A stretch of DNA of 64,000 bases. It comes from Lentisphaerota bacterium. Its GTDB lineage: Bacteria; Verrucomicrobiota; Kiritimatiellia; RFP12; UBA1067. Below the pieces are notes generated by a model. The model did not search any database and had not been told where the DNA came from. It saw nothing but the letters and a program-made list of their open reading frames with translations. Where the stretch lies: positions 13,137 to 77,136 of the forward strand of contig SUWC01000006.1 of the NCBI GenBank assembly GCA_015061665.1, in the 5' to 3' direction. Numbering within the stretch: the stretch's first letter is position 1; each line of letters begins with the position of its first letter. A program made the translations under genes and the position numbers. Shown here piece after piece: positions 21,776 through 31,789 of the stretch.

Positions 21776-22324
21776 ATGGCTAAGTGGGTCTGCCCCGTCT
21801 GCGGGTATGTGTATGAAGGCGAAAATCCGCCGGAGAAATGTCCGCAGTGCGGCGTTCCTGGCGCGAAGTTCAAGAAGCAGGAGACAATGACATTTGTCGC
21901 CGAGCACCATGTAGGGGATGGCATCGTTGACGATGCGGAGGTAACTGAGGGACTCAAGGCGCATTTCACAGGTGAGTGCACCGAGGTCGGCATGTATCTG
22001 GCGATGAGCCGCGTAGCTGATCGCGAAGGCTATCCCGAAGTCGCAGAGGCGTACAAGCGCATTGCGTACGAGGAGGCCGAGCATGCCGCCAAGTTCGCAG
22101 AGCTCCTCGGCGAGAAGATCGACATCGTCACGGCATCGACCAAGACGAACCTCACGCGCCGCGTTGAGGCGGAGTGCGGAGCGACCGCCGGCAAGCTGGC
22201 CATCGCAAAGCGCGCCAAGGAACTTGGCTACGACGCGATCCACGACACCGTTCATGAGATGGCGAAGGACGAGGCGCGTCACGGCAAGGCTTTCCAGGGA
22301 CTGCTCAACCGCTACTTCAAGTAA
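21776..22324 (+). CDS. reverse rubrerythrin (N-terminal rubredoxin-like domain + diiron ferritin-like domain)
   Basis: CPVCGY...CPQCG at the N-terminus, then ExxH diiron motifs EEAEHAAKF and DEARHGKAF. Strong SD TAGGAGG. Confidence 0.85.
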
Positions 22325-26441: not shown

Positions 26442-27332
26442 ATGAAGAGATTCTTTCTGCTTGCGGTTTTGAACGTGGCAGTTCTGATGATGCTCTCGCT
26501 GGCATCGTCGGTTCTCTTCGCCGTCCTCGGCGTTCCTTTAGCCAAGATATTCGGCGACTATTCCTATCTTGCATGTTTCTCGATCGCCCTTGGCTTCGGC
26601 GGCTCGATTATCTCGCTTCTGATTTCAAAGCCGATGGCGAAGTGGAGCGTCCATGCGAGGACGATCACCGGAAACGAAGGGCCTGCCGAGCGCTGGCTTG
26701 TCGATACGGTCGCCGATCTTGCGCAGCGCGCAGGGCTGAAGACTCCCGAGGTCGCGATCTACGAGGGAAGCGCTAACGCATTTGCAACGGGAGCTTTCAA
26801 GAACAGCGCTCTTGTGGCCGTGTCGACGGACATCATGCGCCAGATGACCAAGGAAGAGCTCCGTGCCGTGCTTGGACATGAAATCAGCCACGTCGCCAAC
26901 GGCGACATGGTCACGATGTGCCTCGCCCAGGGCGTTCTCAACGTTTTCGTCATTTTCCTGTCCCGCGTGCTCGCATCTGTGATAGACGGCGCGCTCTCCG
27001 GCAACCGCAGTTCGCGCAACCGCTCCAGTGGTTTCGCCTACTATATTGTCGTACCTGTGCTTGAGCTCCTCTTTGGGCTGCTCGCTTCCATAATCACCTG
27101 CTGGTATTCGCGCAGGCGCGAGTTTGCCGCAGACTCCGGTTCGGCGAGACTCCTCGGTTCGCCTGCCTCCATGATAGCCGCGCTTCGCAGGCTCGGCAAC
27201 CTCCAGCCCGGCGTACTGCCTGCTTCTCTCAAGGCGTTCGGCATCGCCTCAAAGCCGAAGACCTCGCTTTGGGCGACTCATCCCCCGCTTCAGGTGCGCA
27301 TTGACGCGCTCCTCAACGCAGGCCCTCGCTAA
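26442..27332 (+). CDS. htpX: M48-family zinc metalloprotease HtpX
   Basis: HEISHVANGDM (HExxH), TM segments on both sides, EFAADSGSA. Confidence 0.9.
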   Translation: MKRFFLLAVLNVAVLMMLSLASSVLFAVLGVPLAKIFGDYSYLACFSIALGFGGSIISLLISKPMAKWSVHARTITGNEGPAERWLVDTVADLAQRAGLKTPEVAIYEGSANAFATGAFKNSALVAVSTDIMRQMTKEELRAVLGHEISHVANGDMVTMCLAQGVLNVFVIFLSRVLASVIDGALSGNRSSRNRSSGFAYYIVVPVLELLFGLLASIITCWYSRRREFAADSGSARLLGSPASMIAALRRLGNLQPGVLPASLKAFGIASKPKTSLWATHPPLQVRIDALLNAGPR

Positions 27333-27335
27333 GCC

Positions 27336-28475
27336 GTGAACAATCGCCTTTTCTGGAGTTCCTTCGCGCTTTGCCTCCCGACCACCGCTCTTGTCGCGGC
27401 AGCCGTGATGTTCTATTACTACGATGTGCCCCGCATCCAGCAAAGCGAGAGCGAGCGCGTCCGCTCCGAGGCCAGGGAGATAGCCGACGACTTGAAGGAC
27501 GGCGTCGCGCAGTCTGATTTCGTCTGGGTGTACGGCAAGGGCGTCGAGGATGGACACGAACCGTATGCGTCTGAGTTTCCTCCGTCCCTTACGTGGAAGG
27601 ACTGGCCGTCGAACGGACCGAAGCGCAAGGCGGACATGTGGGGCTTCATGGAACACGACGACGGAATGATCGTTTGGGTCCGCAGCGGAAAGAAGGTTCT
27701 TGGACGCGAAACAACGCTCGCTGAGGTTGACTATAGGTCGCTTTTCCTCTATGGTGGACTTTTTGCGTGCTTCGTTCTTATTGCGATTACCGGCATCGCC
27801 ATCCGCTATTTCCGGTCGTATGTGAAAAGCAGAGACGACTATCTCGCCGCGACCGCGCACGACCTCACCACGCCTCTCGTGGGAATGAGGCACTGCATCG
27901 GCCGCAACGACGAGGAGGCGAAGATTCTCAACGAGCGCCTTATACGAATCGTCGACAACATAAAGGATTTCCTTCGTCTTGGAGGTAGGCGCGCCAAGTT
28001 CAACGTCGAGACCTTTGATATCGTCGATGCCTACAAGGAGGCCTACGGACTCTTTAGGGCAGACTACCGCGATATTTTCGAAGGATGCGACGTGCCGATT
28101 GAGGTCATTGGGGACAGCAGGGTCTCAGCAGACATGACGCTCGTTGTCCAGATCCTTTGGAACCTTCTTGGAAACGACCTCAAGTATGCCGCGCCGTTCG
28201 GTCCTGTAAAGGTCAGGATCCGTCGTGAATACGCGTATGTTGCAGTGGACTTCATCGACGAGGGCCAAGGCATGTCTTCGTCACAGATGCGCCACGCCTT
28301 CGACCGCTACTACAGGGCAAAGACGGTCCTGGAATGCGGAAAGGGCGGATTCGGGCTTGGGCTCTGCACAGCACGCGAACAGGCCGAGCTGATGGGAGGA
28401 TCTCTGTCGGTGCGCGCAAACTCGCCCAGGGGCTGCGTATTCACGCTTCGCCTTCCCGCCGCAGCTTCCGCTTGA
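27336..28475 (+). CDS. membrane sensor histidine kinase (two TM segments, extracytoplasmic loop, HisKA + HATPase)
   Basis: GTG start 3 nt after the htpX stop. H-box ATAHDLTTPL, N-box LLGNDLKYA, G-boxes DEGQGM and GLGLCTAREQAELMGGSL. No response regulator gene adjacent. Confidence 0.85.
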   Translation: MNNRLFWSSFALCLPTTALVAAAVMFYYYDVPRIQQSESERVRSEAREIADDLKDGVAQSDFVWVYGKGVEDGHEPYASEFPPSLTWKDWPSNGPKRKADMWGFMEHDDGMIVWVRSGKKVLGRETTLAEVDYRSLFLYGGLFACFVLIAITGIAIRYFRSYVKSRDDYLAATAHDLTTPLVGMRHCIGRNDEEAKILNERLIRIVDNIKDFLRLGGRRAKFNVETFDIVDAYKEAYGLFRADYRDIFEGCDVPIEVIGDSRVSADMTLVVQILWNLLGNDLKYAAPFGPVKVRIRREYAYVAVDFIDEGQGMSSSQMRHAFDRYYRAKTVLECGKGGFGLGLCTAREQAELMGGSLSVRANSPRGCVFTLRLPAAASA

Positions 28476-28509
28476 TGCGAGTTGTCCATTTCAAACCTAG
28501 TGCAAAGAT

Positions 28510-29664
28510 ATGACAAAGATTGAATATTTTCCCGATGAGGCTGCTTCCGCCGCGTTCATGGATTCGCTGGGCGGCTACAGGAATCCGTCTGCCGTATCGC
28601 CGCTGAAGGGCGCTGCCGCGCATGAAGTCGCCGTTGGACCAGTGCACGCCGGAGTCATCGAGCCAGGTCACTTTCGCTTCCAGTGCATGGGCGAGGACGT
28701 CTACAACCTTCAGATCTTCCTCGGCTACCAGCATCGAGGCGTGGAGAGTGAAATTGTCGAAGCGGACGGCTTCACGGCGCGCCAGGTCGCCCTAGCTGAG
28801 ACATGCGCAGGCGATACGTCAATCGCCGCTGCGACTTGCTTTGCAGAAATCATGGAGTCCGTCTTCCCCGATCGTTTCGCCGCGCCCGATGCGAAAGCGA
28901 TGTCCGTCCGCAGTTGTCTTCTTGAGCTTGAACGCATAGCCAACCATGTCGGCGATCTCGGCGCGCTTGCAGGCGATGTCGCATTTCTTCCTACTTCGTC
29001 GTTCTGCGGACGCATCCGCGGCGACTATCTCAACATGACGGCGCTCGTCTGCGGCAATCGCTTCGGACGCAACGCCGTCGTTCCAGGCGGAACGCGCGTG
29101 ACGATAGACTCCGAGAAGGCCGCGAAGCTGAAGTCGCTAGTCGCAGCCGCGAAGAAGGACCTCGACAACGCCCTCGGGCTGATGTTCAACGAACCGACCG
29201 TCGTGGATCGATTCTCGGGAACTGGCACTGTCACGAAGGAAACCGCCGCGCAGATCGGGCTTGTCGGAGTCGCGCGAAGGGCATCCGATGAATTCGGCGG
29301 AGACGTCCTTGCTCGCGCAAAAGTGCGCCGCGTCGAGATAGACGAGGCCCACGAAAAGATATCAGCCATCCTCGACGCGCTTGAGGCAGGGCGAACGCCC
29401 GAATGCCTCGAAGCGGCAAAGGCGCCGACAATGAAGCCCGAGGGCCGATTCGCAGTCTGCGTGTCCACAGTCCAGGCATGGAGAGGACCACTTGTCCATG
29501 CCGCGCTATTCGGCGAGGGCGGAAAGCTGCTCCGCTACAAGATAGTTGATCCGTCGGCGTTCAACTGGCATGGTCTCGCGTGGGCGCTGCGCGGAGAGCA
29601 GATTTCGAACTTCCCGATCTGCAACAAGTCATTCAACCTTTCGTACTGCGGCACAGACCGCTGA
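28510..29664 (+). CDS. group-4 [NiFe]-hydrogenase large-subunit-like protein (HycE/EchE/NuoD fold) lacking most Ni-Fe cysteine ligands
   Basis: GPVHAGVIEPGHFRF and GYQHRGVE are hallmark motifs of the family. The L1 position reads ETCAGDTSIAA instead of C-G-x-C-x-x-x-H. The C-terminus reads SFNLSYCGTDR* instead of DPCxxCxxR. Confidence 0.75.
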   Translation: MTKIEYFPDEAASAAFMDSLGGYRNPSAVSPLKGAAAHEVAVGPVHAGVIEPGHFRFQCMGEDVYNLQIFLGYQHRGVESEIVEADGFTARQVALAETCAGDTSIAAATCFAEIMESVFPDRFAAPDAKAMSVRSCLLELERIANHVGDLGALAGDVAFLPTSSFCGRIRGDYLNMTALVCGNRFGRNAVVPGGTRVTIDSEKAAKLKSLVAAAKKDLDNALGLMFNEPTVVDRFSGTGTVTKETAAQIGLVGVARRASDEFGGDVLARAKVRRVEIDEAHEKISAILDALEAGRTPECLEAAKAPTMKPEGRFAVCVSTVQAWRGPLVHAALFGEGGKLLRYKIVDPSAFNWHGLAWALRGEQISNFPICNKSFNLSYCGTDR

Positions 29665-29677
29665 CAGGAGATTCATC

Positions 29678-30415
29678 ATGCTTGACGCATTTGCCGCACG
29701 ACTTAGGCAGGGATTCAGGACCGGGGCGTTTCCTCCCGCGCCGCCGAATCTCCCCCCTGACTTCAGGGGACGTCCAAAGCTCGACGCCGGAATGACGCGC
29801 ACGGACGTCGAATCCGCCGCGAAGGAGTGTCCGTCGCTCGGTTCTCTGGGCTTTGACGAGAAGGGCGCGTTCCTGGACATGGGGCGCTGCATTTTCTGCG
29901 GACGCTGCGCGAAGGCGTGTCCGAAGATTTCCTTCACGCGCGAGTACAGGCTCGGCGTTTTCAGGCGCGAGGACCTTGTGGTTCGCGCAGGGGAGGGCGA
30001 ATACGCACCTCCGGAGCAGTCCGATCCCGAGGCGCTCGCGCTGCGCCATTCGTTTCTTCTGCGCGAAGTTTCGGCAGGGGGCTGCGGCGCGTGCGAGTTG
30101 GACGCAAACGTTCTGGGAACCCTTGCATGGGACTTCGGACGCTTCGGCATTCGTTTTGCGGCGTCGCCGCGCCATGCGGATGCGATATACCTTACCGGGC
30201 CTGTATCCAAGAACATGCAGTTGGCGCTCGACAAGACGTATGCCGCCGCTCCATATCCGAAGTTCCTGATTGCGGCTGGCGCGTGCGCGATATCGGGCGG
30301 ACTTTATGCGCAGGGCAAGCTTCCTGCGGTGCCTTCACTGTTCATTCCTGGCTGTCCGCCACATCCAGCGACGACACTGGATGCGCTTTTGCGTTTCACG
30401 GGCCGTCGCGCTTGA
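29678..30415 (+). CDS. fused ferredoxin-like (HycF/EchF-type) + NuoB/HycG-like small-subunit Fe-S protein
   Basis: AGGAG SD, ATG 29678. CIFCGRCAKACP (4Fe-4S motif), then GGCGACE, SPRHADAIYLTGP, GACAISGG, PGCPP (NuoB/HycG proximal-cluster motifs). Confidence 0.75.
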   Translation: MLDAFAARLRQGFRTGAFPPAPPNLPPDFRGRPKLDAGMTRTDVESAAKECPSLGSLGFDEKGAFLDMGRCIFCGRCAKACPKISFTREYRLGVFRREDLVVRAGEGEYAPPEQSDPEALALRHSFLLREVSAGGCGACELDANVLGTLAWDFGRFGIRFAASPRHADAIYLTGPVSKNMQLALDKTYAAAPYPKFLIAAGACAISGGLYAQGKLPAVPSLFIPGCPPHPATTLDALLRFTGRRA

Positions 30416-30427
30416 CTCTTTGCCCCG

Positions 30428-30441
30428 TTTTTTGGTATCAT
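30428..30441 (+). promoter_or_regulatory. extended -10 promoter motif TTTTTTGGTATCAT upstream of nusA
   Basis: Recurrent motif with a TATCAT -10. A 76-nt leader runs to ATG 30518. Confidence 0.5.
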
Positions 30442-30517
30442 ATTGCTTGATTTCGGCGATTCGAGTGGATCGCCCGTGGTTTACTATTGGCTCTTTCTGA
30501 CACTCAGGAGATATATA

Positions 30518-31789
30518 ATGGCGATTAACAACCAGTTGCTGGCAGTTGTCCAGAACATAGAAAACGAACGCGGCGTGAGTCGCGAGATCGTCCTTACCGC
30601 TATTGAGCAGGCTATAATGCAGGCCGCTCGTAAGAATCAAGCGGTTACGAACGACTTTCGTGTTTTCATTAATCGCCAGGATCTTTCAATCCACATCTTC
30701 GACACATTCGTCTGCTCGGACGAGGATACTGGTCCTGGTTTCATCTCCCTTTCGATGGCTCGCCGCGTGAAGCCCGACATCAAGGAGGGCGAGGCTCTTG
30801 AGGTGGAGATGCCTCCGGCTAAGCTCGGCCGCATAGCGGCGCAGATGTCGCGTCAGATGATCATGCAGAAGATCCGCGACGCCGAACGCAGCAACACATT
30901 TACCGAGTACCGCGACCGCATCGGCGACATCGTCTCCGGAACGGTTACGGCGATTGCCCATCGAGATGTCTACATCATGGTCGGTAAGACTGAGATGCTT
31001 CTTCCAGGCCGCCACCGCATCCCGGGCGAGGACTACCAGATCGGCGACTCGATCCGTGCGGTTGTTGAGCGCGTCGACACTGACGACCACAAGGGGCCGT
31101 CCGTCCTTGTCAGCCGTACGTCGCCGAAGTTCCTGGAGGCGCTTTTCCGCCTTGAGGTCTCCGAGATACAGGATGGTGTAGTTGAAATAGTTTCGGTCAG
31201 CCGTGATCCTGGTTACCGCGCTAAGATTGCGGTCAGGACGTCCAACGAGAACATAGATCCAGTCGGTGCGTGCGTCGGCCAGAAGGGCTCCCGCGTCCGC
31301 ACCATTGTCAACGAGCTTGGCGGCGAAAAGATTGACATTGTCCGCTGGAGCGACGACATCCGCCAGTTCGTCACGCAGGCGCTTTCGCCCGCGAAGCTCG
31401 AGTCCGTTACTGTCGATCCAGCTGAGCCGAATACAGTCCACATCGTTGTTTCCCCCGACCAGTATTCACTCGCGATCGGCAAGCGCGGGCAGAACGTCCG
31501 CCTCACGACGAAGCTCACGGGCTGGCACATCGAGGTCAAGAAGTCTTTGGCTACGGCGAGCTTCGACGAGCTCAAGGCCGAGGCCATCAAGGAACTGGCG
31601 GAGACGTTCAGTGTTTCGACGGCTGTCGCCAAGCAGATGGCGGAAGCCGGATTCCTTACGGTCGACGGGATCGTCGCGGCCGACGAGGCGACGTTCATCG
31701 CGTCGACGGGACTTGACGAAGTCACTGCCAAGGGTGTCTATGCGGCGGCGCTGGCCGTTTCCGAACTCACCGCGAACAATGAGAAATGA
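30518..31789 (+). CDS. nusA: transcription termination/antitermination factor NusA
   Basis: N-terminal LLAVVQNIENERGVSREIV, S1 domain GDIVSGTV, KH domains GACVGQKGSRV and AIGKRGQNVRL. Start at ATG 30518 after CAGGAG. Confidence 0.9.
   Translation: MAINNQLLAVVQNIENERGVSREIVLTAIEQAIMQAARKNQAVTNDFRVFINRQDLSIHIFDTFVCSDEDTGPGFISLSMARRVKPDIKEGEALEVEMPPAKLGRIAAQMSRQMIMQKIRDAERSNTFTEYRDRIGDIVSGTVTAIAHRDVYIMVGKTEMLLPGRHRIPGEDYQIGDSIRAVVERVDTDDHKGPSVLVSRTSPKFLEALFRLEVSEIQDGVVEIVSVSRDPGYRAKIAVRTSNENIDPVGACVGQKGSRVRTIVNELGGEKIDIVRWSDDIRQFVTQALSPAKLESVTVDPAEPNTVHIVVSPDQYSLAIGKRGQNVRLTTKLTGWHIEVKKSLATASFDELKAEAIKELAETFSVSTAVAKQMAEAGFLTVDGIVAADEATFIASTGLDEVTAKGVYAAALAVSELTANNEK

Follow-up and report, generated by a model that had tools for sequence, protein, structure and literature searches.

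An ehrL-ehrS gene pair without adjacent membrane-arm genes in a Lentisphaerota bacterium of the class Kiritimatiellia

Ehr (energy-converting or Ech-hydrogenase-related) complexes are widespread and occupy a place in evolution on the path between group-4 hydrogenases and complex I, and the Ehr clade is positioned next to group 4f. The present analysis concerns two adjacent genes, here designated ehrL and ehrS, on a 64-kb stretch of contig SUWC01000006.1 of a Lentisphaerota bacterium (GCA_015061665.1); the whole of this stretch is referred to as the window, while relatives found in searches are named L### for loci and P#### for proteins. The complex was first described in Geobacter sulfurreducens (GSU0739-45; Coppi 2005, as cited in PMC7894505 and PMC13194489), where EhrA is NuoL-like and EhrC is HyfE-like, and where EhrL and EhrS are also found (PMC7894505), while the gene set was named ehrABCDLS in Methylacidiphilum (PMC6688271). 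In the literature, Ehr is treated as related to group 4, as devoid of the Cys residues that bind Ni and Fe, and as having an unknown role (PMC6349859; bioRxiv 10.1101/765248; PMC7304191; PMC10284858; PMC13194489). Lentisphaerae and spirochaete sequences have already been placed in the Ehr clade (PMC6349859), and Ehr has also been reported in Methylacidiphilum, Margulisbacteria, Melainabacteria, Nitrospira, the Candidate Phyla Radiation (CPR) and Elusimicrobia. The family is thus described without a known substrate or activity for any of its members, a picture which the window locus leaves as it is.

Judged by homology and by the gene order of its orthologues, the window pair is assigned to this known family as EhrL and EhrS, the comparison with Geobacter EhrL being made by published description. 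It is considered quite probable that the two proteins constitute the redox module, on the cytoplasmic side, of a Hyf-like membrane complex that translocates ions and whose arm genes are situated at another locus, and the apparent lack of an arm at the window locus most likely reflects fragmentation of the operon and not a new kind of enzyme. The relevant features of the window are the following:

28510 to 29664, + strand: ehrL, large subunit of the Ehr complex, 384 amino acids (aa), a HycE/HyfG/NuoD homologue without Ni-Fe ligands
28636 to 28680, + strand: hairpin motif GPVHAGVIEPGHFRF (aa 43-57), counterpart of the NuoD/HycE beta1-beta2 loop according to the alignment to 2fug_4
28798 to 28830, + strand: remodelled N-terminal metal-site motif E97-T-C-A-G-D-T-S-I-A-A107, replacing D/E-R-x-C-G-x-C-x-x-x-H (alignments, family consensus)
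29620 to 29664, + strand: C-terminal signature C371-N-K-S-F-N-L-S-Y-C-G-T-D-R384 with the stop codon, its end point being the mature C-terminus of HycE and MbhL
29665 to 29677, + strand: spacer of 13 nt between ehrL and ehrS, with AGGAG (Shine-Dalgarno-like; from the sequence)
29678 to 30415, + strand: ehrS, small subunit, 245 aa, a ferredoxin half-domain fused to a HycG/NuoB-type domain (Pfam, NCBIfam, PDB)
29828 to 29920, + strand: Cys51-Pro and Cys71-x-x-Cys74-x-x-Cys77-x-x-x-Cys81-Pro, predicted single [4Fe-4S] site (Cys51, 71, 74, 77)
30083 to 30355, + strand: Cys136-x-x-Cys139, Cys203 and Cys226-Pro-Pro, predicted proximal (N2-type) [4Fe-4S] ligands as in HycG/NuoB

EhrL is homologous to group-4 large subunits and NuoD (PF00346, and 7z0s_E by both sequence and fold), the Cys residues of both Ni-Fe motifs are absent (Ala100, Thr103, Ser378 and Gly381 occupy their places), and a NuoB/HycG-like partner with [4Fe-4S] ligands is encoded 13 nt downstream. 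Clustering with ehrABCD, absent at the window locus, is present in the orthologues, as became apparent from the context of 80 species representatives retrieved with the window protein. An antiporter-like gene (ehrD or ehrA) is located directly 5' of ehrL in 69 of these, the lineages concerned being Kiritimatiellia, Lentisphaeria, Victivallales, Phycisphaerae, Pirellulales, Desulfobulbia, Desulfovibrionaceae, Myxococcota and Rectinemataceae, and all six ehr genes were found in 60 of the 80; six representatives possess no arm within 2.5-10 kb, and the contigs of another five are too short to judge. For example, locus L004, from a Kiritimatiellia metagenome-assembled genome (MAG), encodes a 70%-identical orthologue at the end of a six-gene cluster, in the order Proton_antipo_M protein (563 aa), NADHdh protein (NuoH-like, 296 aa), membrane protein of 229 aa, Proton_antipo_M protein (409 aa), L and S. 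The first, third and fourth of these products are, according to NCBIfam, HyfB-like, HyfE-like (E 6e-17) and HyfF-like, respectively, while EhrB matches Pfam NADHdh, and orthologues with 64-74% identity to the L004 large subunit (tblastn) close ehrABCD-L-S clusters.

The gene composition and order of these orthologues match the published ehrABCDLS, and the family is therefore already known. An earlier note on this DNA, made from the sequence alone, had remarked that the protein resembles the energy-converting hydrogenase-related idea, and the ligand loss, the orthologue cluster and the literature support membership of that described family. The same note's view that it differs from Ehr in having no membrane arm is correct for the 64 kb of the window and unsupported for the family, given the arm-linked orthologues, the arm-only loci that these clades also contain and the unrelaxed constraint on the pair, which are described below.

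The ehr operon is repeatedly split into L-S and ABCD or BCD pieces in gut Kiritimatiellia. The ehrL and ehrS genes are a tightly coupled pair, S being found within 260 nt 3' of L in 77 of 77 related loci, and in the window this pair lies between a histidine-kinase gene and nusA. The same detached layout (HtpX, histidine kinase, L-S, NusA) is seen in an 89%-identical relative, L085, and detached pairs occur in other contexts as well: between a 312-aa open reading frame (ORF), itself preceded by ParB and M28 peptidase genes, and Sua5 (P0007), between radical SAM and DUF4886 genes (P0106), and between RecBCD and rplM (P0078), with P0069 representing a further detached pair. In a neighbour-joining tree of L, the detached pairs fall at several places among the arm-linked sequences. 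The complementary arm-only loci were found by a metagenome scan with an EhrB alignment, followed by locus look-ups. Loci with ehrABCD but without L-S, followed by unrelated or convergent genes, are L093, L096, L163 and L171-176 (in L093, for example, the order is rhamnosidase, ABCD and a PLP enzyme on the opposite strand), while ehrBCD without L-S is found in L105/L177 and in L178, flanked by rubrerythrin and Hsp33 genes or by a sigma-factor gene, and ehrABC alone in L111.

The two kinds of fragment appear to belong together in several respects. In the EhrC and EhrD trees the ABCD-only loci form a clade of their own, at the position that one detached-pair clade occupies in the L tree. Mirror profiles, consisting of identities against 14 complete operons, gave correlations of r 0.84-0.92 between the L-S of the window clade and the ehrBCD lineage, versus 0.24-0.48 with other arms, and of r 0.91-0.98 between the other detached pairs and the ABCD-only lineage. 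The evidence is most direct for two contigs: locus L168 (recBCD, ehrL, ehrS, rplM, orf, DEAD helicase, contig end) and locus L171 (rplM, orf, DEAD, GT2, ehrABCD) overlap by 2408 nt at 97% identity, which therefore places L-S 5' and ABCD 3' of one four-gene block in one species-level population, with the caveat that the two derive from different samples and that their sequences cease to match 68 nt beyond the stop codon of ehrS. The isolated position of ehrL-ehrS between the histidine-kinase gene and nusA is most likely a consequence of the break-up of the ehr operon in this lineage, and we infer that ehrBCD(A) is present elsewhere in this genome, outside the 64 kb.

Several points weigh against an arm encoded elsewhere. 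A tblastn search for ehrA-D homologues found none in the 64-kb window, and no single contig or MAG was seen with both a detached pair and a detached arm; linking through NCBI MAGs gave no match between arm-clade EhrB, from GCA_017646855.1 and GCA_017647185.1 (contigs of 1.8-3.5 kb), and the detached L proteins looked up, from GCA_016852305.1. Much of the correlation between the mirror profiles is a reflection of the two subclades to which the sequences belong. In the more distant locus L024, L-S is accompanied by the shared block and by GT2 while the following 5 kb contain no arm, and L163 comprises the block and ehrABCD without L-S, so that each half alone stands beside the same block, an arrangement which also fits differential loss. 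Finally, the donor, the acceptor and the ion coupling remain proposals for every Ehr complex (PMC6349859; bioRxiv 10.1101/765248; PMC10284858). The earlier note had itself stated that its reading would be refuted if the protein fell within a well-characterised clade and its partner genes lay elsewhere in the genome, and this largely applies: the clade is a described rather than a well-characterised one, and a location elsewhere is strongly indicated, if unproven for this genome.

A number of observations concern the layout of individual loci. The assemblies of L171-L173, three independent ones, begin at the same base, 165 nt before the homology to L168, and this unique leader (positions 1-165) holds a perfect hairpin, CCTCCCCCATGGGGGAGG; a repeat, or a junction that varies between strains, may thus interrupt assembly at exactly the point where L-S would join. 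The window possesses a rubrerythrin gene at 21776-22324, 6 kb 5' of ehrL, whose orthologues (85-86% identical) adjoin detached ehrBCD, being directly 5' of it in L177/L105 (L177 9396-9950) and one gene away in L178 (4003-4557), which could be the trace of an older rubrerythrin-ehr neighbourhood or could be chance. Apart from this gene no synteny is shared between the L105-type contigs and the window, and L105 has a rare EhrB, for which one relative (77% identity) was found. The MAG contig L010 (1-11867) carries ehrC-D-L-S with a CNNM transporter at the position of ehrA-B, while ehrA-B-C-D stand in a row in L104, a metagenome contig with an almost identical EhrC; L010 either has undergone a genuine rearrangement or is a chimeric MAG contig. 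In the Lentisphaeria-type loci L123 (52-7349) and L118 (383-3972), ehrS is directly 5' of ehrA, and another ehrL follows ehrD in L123, which suggests tandem ehr operons that could yield an L-S ... A-B-C-D order.

The detached pair is under purifying selection, the dN/dS of the window genes against L085 being 0.089 for L and 0.070 for S. Of the sites that are invariant among 15 arm-linked orthologues, detached pairs hold 98-100% in L and 97-99% in S, as compared with 97.6-100% and 96.7-100% for the arm-linked sequences themselves in a leave-one-out analysis. Constraint on the detached pairs therefore appears equal to that on arm-linked ones, and nothing in these sequences suggests changed partners or a changed function. 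Across 26442-31789 of the window, dS against L085 is 0.17-0.22 in HtpX and the histidine kinase and 0.61-0.73 in ehrL, ehrS and nusA, a mosaic suggestive of a recombination boundary close to 28.5 kb in two strains that are collinear in other respects.

These data bear on the foremost alternative, namely that EhrL-EhrS is a free-standing, soluble cytoplasmic oxidoreductase with two clusters, ehrABCD having been lost in this and other gut Kiritimatiellia lineages. Such a module would agree with the absence of arm genes from the 64 kb, with the purifying selection on a pair that is always together in at least four different neighbourhoods, and with L024, where L-S stands beside the shared block with no arm downstream. 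It is nevertheless improbable, as the arm-only loci (ABCD, BCD) in matching subclades would be orphaned likewise, as the detached pairs carry no added substitutions at sites invariant in arm-linked orthologues, and as the overlap of L168 and L171 puts both halves in one species; in addition, the low confidence of the invariant hairpin and of the C-terminal tail in the monomer model, as if these were ordered only in a complex, hints weakly in the same direction. The associated notion that the freed EhrL-EhrS pocket, with its invariant Asp102, Thr/Ser103-104, Cys371 and Cys380, performs non-hydrogenase chemistry in a soluble oxidoreductase is similarly doubtful. If true, a soluble module without an arm would offer a tractable route to the Ehr substrate, and would be the first case in which the hydrogenase/complex I catalytic module had given rise to a descendant without an arm.

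To return to the membrane-complex assignment, the homology of both subunits points to Hyf-type systems. The ehrL reading frame is intact in the ORF listing, and its 384-aa product matches PF00346 (Complex1_49kDa) with an E value of 2.8e-18. Its top NCBIfam matches are NuoD-type models, all far under their cut-offs (103.5 bits for NF004739, where the cut-off is 360). The closest solved structure by sequence is E. coli HycE (7z0s_E, E 1.2e-23 with the single sequence), followed by MbhL (6cfw_L) and T. thermophilus Nqo4, and a 38-sequence family profile preserves this ranking, with HycE at E 8.9e-29. MbsL (6u8y_L), at E 2.3e-5 with the single sequence and 4.2e-10 with the profile, is not the nearest solved relative, the matches to HycE, MbhL and Nqo4 being far stronger. 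Homologues of EhrL number more than 8000 at 90% clustering, as a lower bound, and form approximately 1650 clusters at 50% identity (E <1e-10); their database names are 'hydrogenase', 'NADH-quinone oxidoreductase subunit C' or 'hypothetical protein', and no relative bearing the name EhrL was present among the cluster members examined.

An AlphaFold monomer model of EhrL (mc033171180f2; mean predicted local distance difference test (pLDDT) score 77, predicted template modelling (pTM) score 0.83) was employed for fold assignment only. A fold search with this model returned 7z0s_E as the top match, followed by complex I 49-kDa/Nqo4 chains, at a template modelling (TM) score of ~0.6. Residues 29-62 and 364-384, which are the two most conserved segments of the protein, have pLDDT values <50, a finding compatible, as weak evidence, with segments whose folding depends on contact with EhrS or EhrB. 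Residues 1-20 (strand 2-7, helix 10-19) are modelled with pLDDT >90 despite their position outside the conserved core, and may be a small remnant of a lost NuoC-like domain. Approximately 37 residues precede the conserved core, and a NuoC-like domain is therefore absent. At the other end, EhrL aligns without gaps to HycE over the last ~60 residues, its terminal Arg corresponding to chain position 549 of 581. In E. coli, HycI cleaves off a 32-residue C-terminal peptide of HycE, and the end of EhrL leaves exactly the 32 residues that HycI removes.

The small subunit is equally Hyf-like. Residues 1-104 of EhrS resemble the first half of HycF/HyfH (HycF/NuoI-type; 7z0s_F, E 4e-9) and contain one complete C-x-x-C-x-x-C-x-x-x-C-P motif and a lone C-P, while residues 123-240 resemble HycG/MbhJ/NuoB (7z0s_G, E 1.7e-19); Pfam matches are to Oxidored_q6 and Fer4, and NCBIfam matches are to the NuoB family and a formate hydrogenlyase Fe-S subunit, all under cut-off (NuoB NF005012 at 81.6 bits versus 116). 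Among 79 family sequences, Cys51, 71, 74, 77, 136, 139, 203 and 226 are invariant, and Cys136, 139, 203 and 226 line up with the cluster Cys residues of HycG and MbhJ. EhrS is accordingly predicted to bind one ferredoxin-type and one N2-type [4Fe-4S] cluster, with Cys81, conserved in 85% of the 79 sequences, as the probable leftover of a lost second ferredoxin cluster.

The NuoD and NuoB models that head the NCBIfam matches, together with the many complex I 49-kDa subunits among the fold-search matches, could be taken to mean that the pair is a divergent NuoD/NuoB module which reduces quinone, the more so as quinone has been suggested as a possible acceptor in papers on Ehr (PMC6349859; bioRxiv 10.1101/765248). 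This is very unlikely in view of the alignment to Nqo4 (2fug_4), in which Ile50 and Gly101 of EhrL occupy the columns of His38 and Tyr87. His38 and Tyr87, in T. thermophilus Nqo4 numbering, are ligands of the quinone head group, and the EhrL site is therefore not of the complex I type. Moreover, the NuoD and NuoB scores remain far from and below their respective cut-offs, EhrL is nearer to HycE than to any NuoD, and the membrane partners in relatives are Hyf-type.

The register at the N-terminal Ni-Fe motif was established by HMMER against HycE and MbhL, by the family profile and by MAFFT with P0257 and P0263, which have an intact site, and all three agree in pairing L-A-E-T-C-A-G-D-T-S-I-A-A of EhrL with L-S-D-R-V-C-G-I-C-G-F-A-H. 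The motif R-x-C-G-x-C-x-x-x-H is thus replaced by T-C-A-G-D-T-S-I-A-A: the Arg column holds Thr98, the first Cys column Ala100, the second Cys column Thr103 and the His column Ala107, with Gly101 retained. Asp102, which is invariant in the close family, sits between the two former Cys ligand columns, and Cys99 lies outside these columns and is variable, the family reading E-T-[C/A/L/V/T/I/M/P]-A-G-D in 85 sequences. At the C-terminal motif, N-L-S-Y-C-G-T-D-R is found in place of D-P-C-x-x-C-x-x-R/H, with Ser378 and Gly381 in the third and fourth Cys columns and one Cys (Cys380) a position earlier than the fourth. On this agreed register, all four Cys ligands of the Ni-Fe site are replaced.

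Much of what the earlier note had read from the letters was confirmed by these alignments. The group-4 hydrogenase/NuoD motifs GPVHAGVIEPGHFRF (aa 43-57) and GYQHRGVE (aa 72-79) are present, the gap-free match of the last residues to the end of mature HycE and the termination at the HycE maturation Arg were recovered, and the absence of a NuoC-like N-terminal domain was corroborated. Its C-terminal reading, i.e., Ser and Gly in the two Cys columns with one Cys shifted by one, is upheld by HycE, MbhL and P0257/P0263. It had described the metal ligands as mostly gone, which is right as to loss and falls short as to extent: four were lost and not three, the Cys of E-T-C-A-G-D being outside the ligand columns and particular to the window clade, and the alignment with HycE, MbhL and the intact-site relatives, of the kind the note had recommended, places no Cys in any of the four. 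At the N-terminal motif, the change of His to Ala stands, while that of the second Cys to Asp reflects a one-residue misregister. The description of the protein as neither a standard hydrogenase nor a complex I subunit is sound, in that all Ni-Fe ligands are replaced, the NuoD score is below its cut-off and the quinone ligands of Nqo4 are missing.

Conservation was evaluated in a close-family set of 85 sequences from nine class- or phylum-level lineages. The hairpin GPVHAGVIEPGHFRF is near-invariant (V or I at two positions, one P-to-L) and is also found in distant representatives, E-T-x-A-G-D-[TS]-[TS] is invariant or nearly so, as is the ending C-N-K-S-F-N-L-S-Y-C-G-x-D-[L/R/K]-stop, and C-N-K-S-F-N-L-S-Y-C-G is kept in 83 of the 85, the exceptions being F-to-Y and N-to-S. 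The old His of the N-terminal motif is kept by many family members and is Ala in the window clade. Among 149 representatives at 50% clustering, the ending N-K-S-F-[N/D]-L-S-Y-x-G-x-D-L is still present, with I/V/N and A/S at the Cys371 and Cys380 columns in the more distant ones, and the two Cys residues are therefore not universal. Distant members are 490-530 aa long and bear an N-terminal extension of ~130 aa with the NuoC-like motif ERE..D.FG, which the Kiritimatiellia clade has lost. The ligand substitutions form a signature conserved across the family and do not represent decay, and the strict conservation of the replacement motifs speaks for a genuine active site of another kind and against a dead site.

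A working [NiFe]-hydrogenase with the unconventional ligands Cys99, Cys371, Cys380 and Asp102 is hardly credible on these grounds: the close family does retain two Cys residues near the C-terminus without exception, and an equally invariant Asp lies between the former ligand columns, yet Cys99 is variable, Cys371 and Cys380 give way to I/V/N and A/S in distant members that retain the rest of the signature, the literature holds Ehr to be unable to bind Ni-Fe (PMC6349859; PMC7304191; PMC10284858; PMC13194489), and inspection of the ORFs in 22-36 kb of the window revealed no hyp or protease gene. Equally remote, and rejected, is the view that ehrL is a hydrogenase large-subunit gene that outlasted its operon and is turning into a pseudogene. 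Although the loss of the ligands, the separation of the genes from the arm and the term 'nonfunctional' applied to Geobacter Ehr in one paper (PMC13194489) would favour it, the reading frame is intact, dN/dS is 0.07-0.09, the replacement residues are themselves invariant across phyla and homologues run into the thousands.

The nearest relatives that possess all four Ni-Fe Cys residues are P0257 and P0263 (35-39% identity; Planctomycetota, 'Ca. Wujingus'), with the motifs E-R-I-C-G-V-C-x-x-x-H and N-K-S-F-E-L-C-Y-S-C-T-D-L. They share the GP[IV]HAGIIEPGHFRF hairpin and the N-K-S-F...T-D-L ending, lack a C-terminal extension, and may mark the hydrogenase lineage that gave rise to Ehr.

Regarding expression of the pair, a promoter and terminator scan returned nothing convincing 5' of ehrL, including no promoter-like site in the 34-nt upstream gap, and transcription of ehrLS may therefore be by read-through that starts ahead of the pair, from the gene for the histidine kinase. 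The one good sigma-70-like match in the region (30412-30441; TTGACT, 18 nt, TATCAT, TG extension) overlaps the last ehrS codons and would serve nusA.

For the membrane complex favoured here, the following electron path may be envisaged. A low-potential cytoplasmic donor, most likely ferredoxin, would reduce the [4Fe-4S] cluster in the HycF-like half of EhrS, from which the electron would move on to the N2-type cluster in the NuoB-like half, the fusion with its two predicted clusters representing a minimal electron path. The electron would then enter a substrate pocket, non-metal or differently metallated, at the junction of EhrL with EhrS (and EhrB), whose presumed lining comprises E-T-x-A-G-D-T/S-S/T, the hairpin GPVHAGVIEPGHFRF and the tail C-N-K-S-F-N-L-S-Y-C-G at the C-terminus. 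The acceptor would be neither H+ nor a quinone bound in the manner of complex I, and turnover would drive ion translocation via EhrB (NuoH-like), EhrC (HyfE-like) and the antiporter-like EhrA and EhrD. The former Ni-Fe pocket has been rebuilt as a strictly conserved set of motifs, E-T-x-A-G-D-T/S-S/T together with C-N-K-S-F-N-L-S-Y-C-G-x-D-L/R. At a practical level, fragmented ehr operons will be misread by those annotation pipelines and hydrogenase surveys that are based on gene neighbourhood.

Among known systems, the Mbx/MBS sulfane-sulfur reductase of Thermococcales (6u8y) is likewise a membrane complex derived from group 4 with a lost Ni-Fe site, and its large subunit acts on a substrate other than protons, as is proposed for EhrL; it differs in its much weaker sequence similarity to EhrL, as compared with HycE, and in its subunit composition. 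The Q-module of complex I (NuoD/Nqo4 with NuoB/Nqo6) has in common with the pair the fold (TM ~0.6), a small subunit with an N2-type cluster and a site of hydrogenase origin from which Ni-Fe has disappeared, while His38 and Tyr87 are absent from EhrL, the NuoD and NuoB scores are below cut-off and the partners are Hyf-type. E. coli formate hydrogenlyase/hydrogenase-4 (7z0s) provides the best solved relative of both EhrL and EhrS. The C-terminal end point of the mature protein and the hairpin motif EPGHFR are common to both systems, as are, in relatives, the Hyf-type membrane partners. In contrast to it, EhrL is without Ni-Fe ligands, NuoC-like domain and C-terminal extension, and HycF and HycG are reduced and fused in EhrS, a single ferredoxin cluster taking the place of two. 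In the loci whose gene tables were inspected, no gene for a formate dehydrogenase was noticed beside ehr. The closest likeness is to the Ehr complex itself, from which the window lineage differs in having L-S detached from ehrABCD, and the Kiritimatiellia clade in being without the ~130-aa NuoC-like N-terminal domain of distant members. The small subunit retains its Fe-S ligands as in other Ehr complexes, and the orthologues have the same six genes in the same order, including the NuoL/HyfB-, NuoH-, HyfE- and NuoN/HyfF-like membrane subunits.

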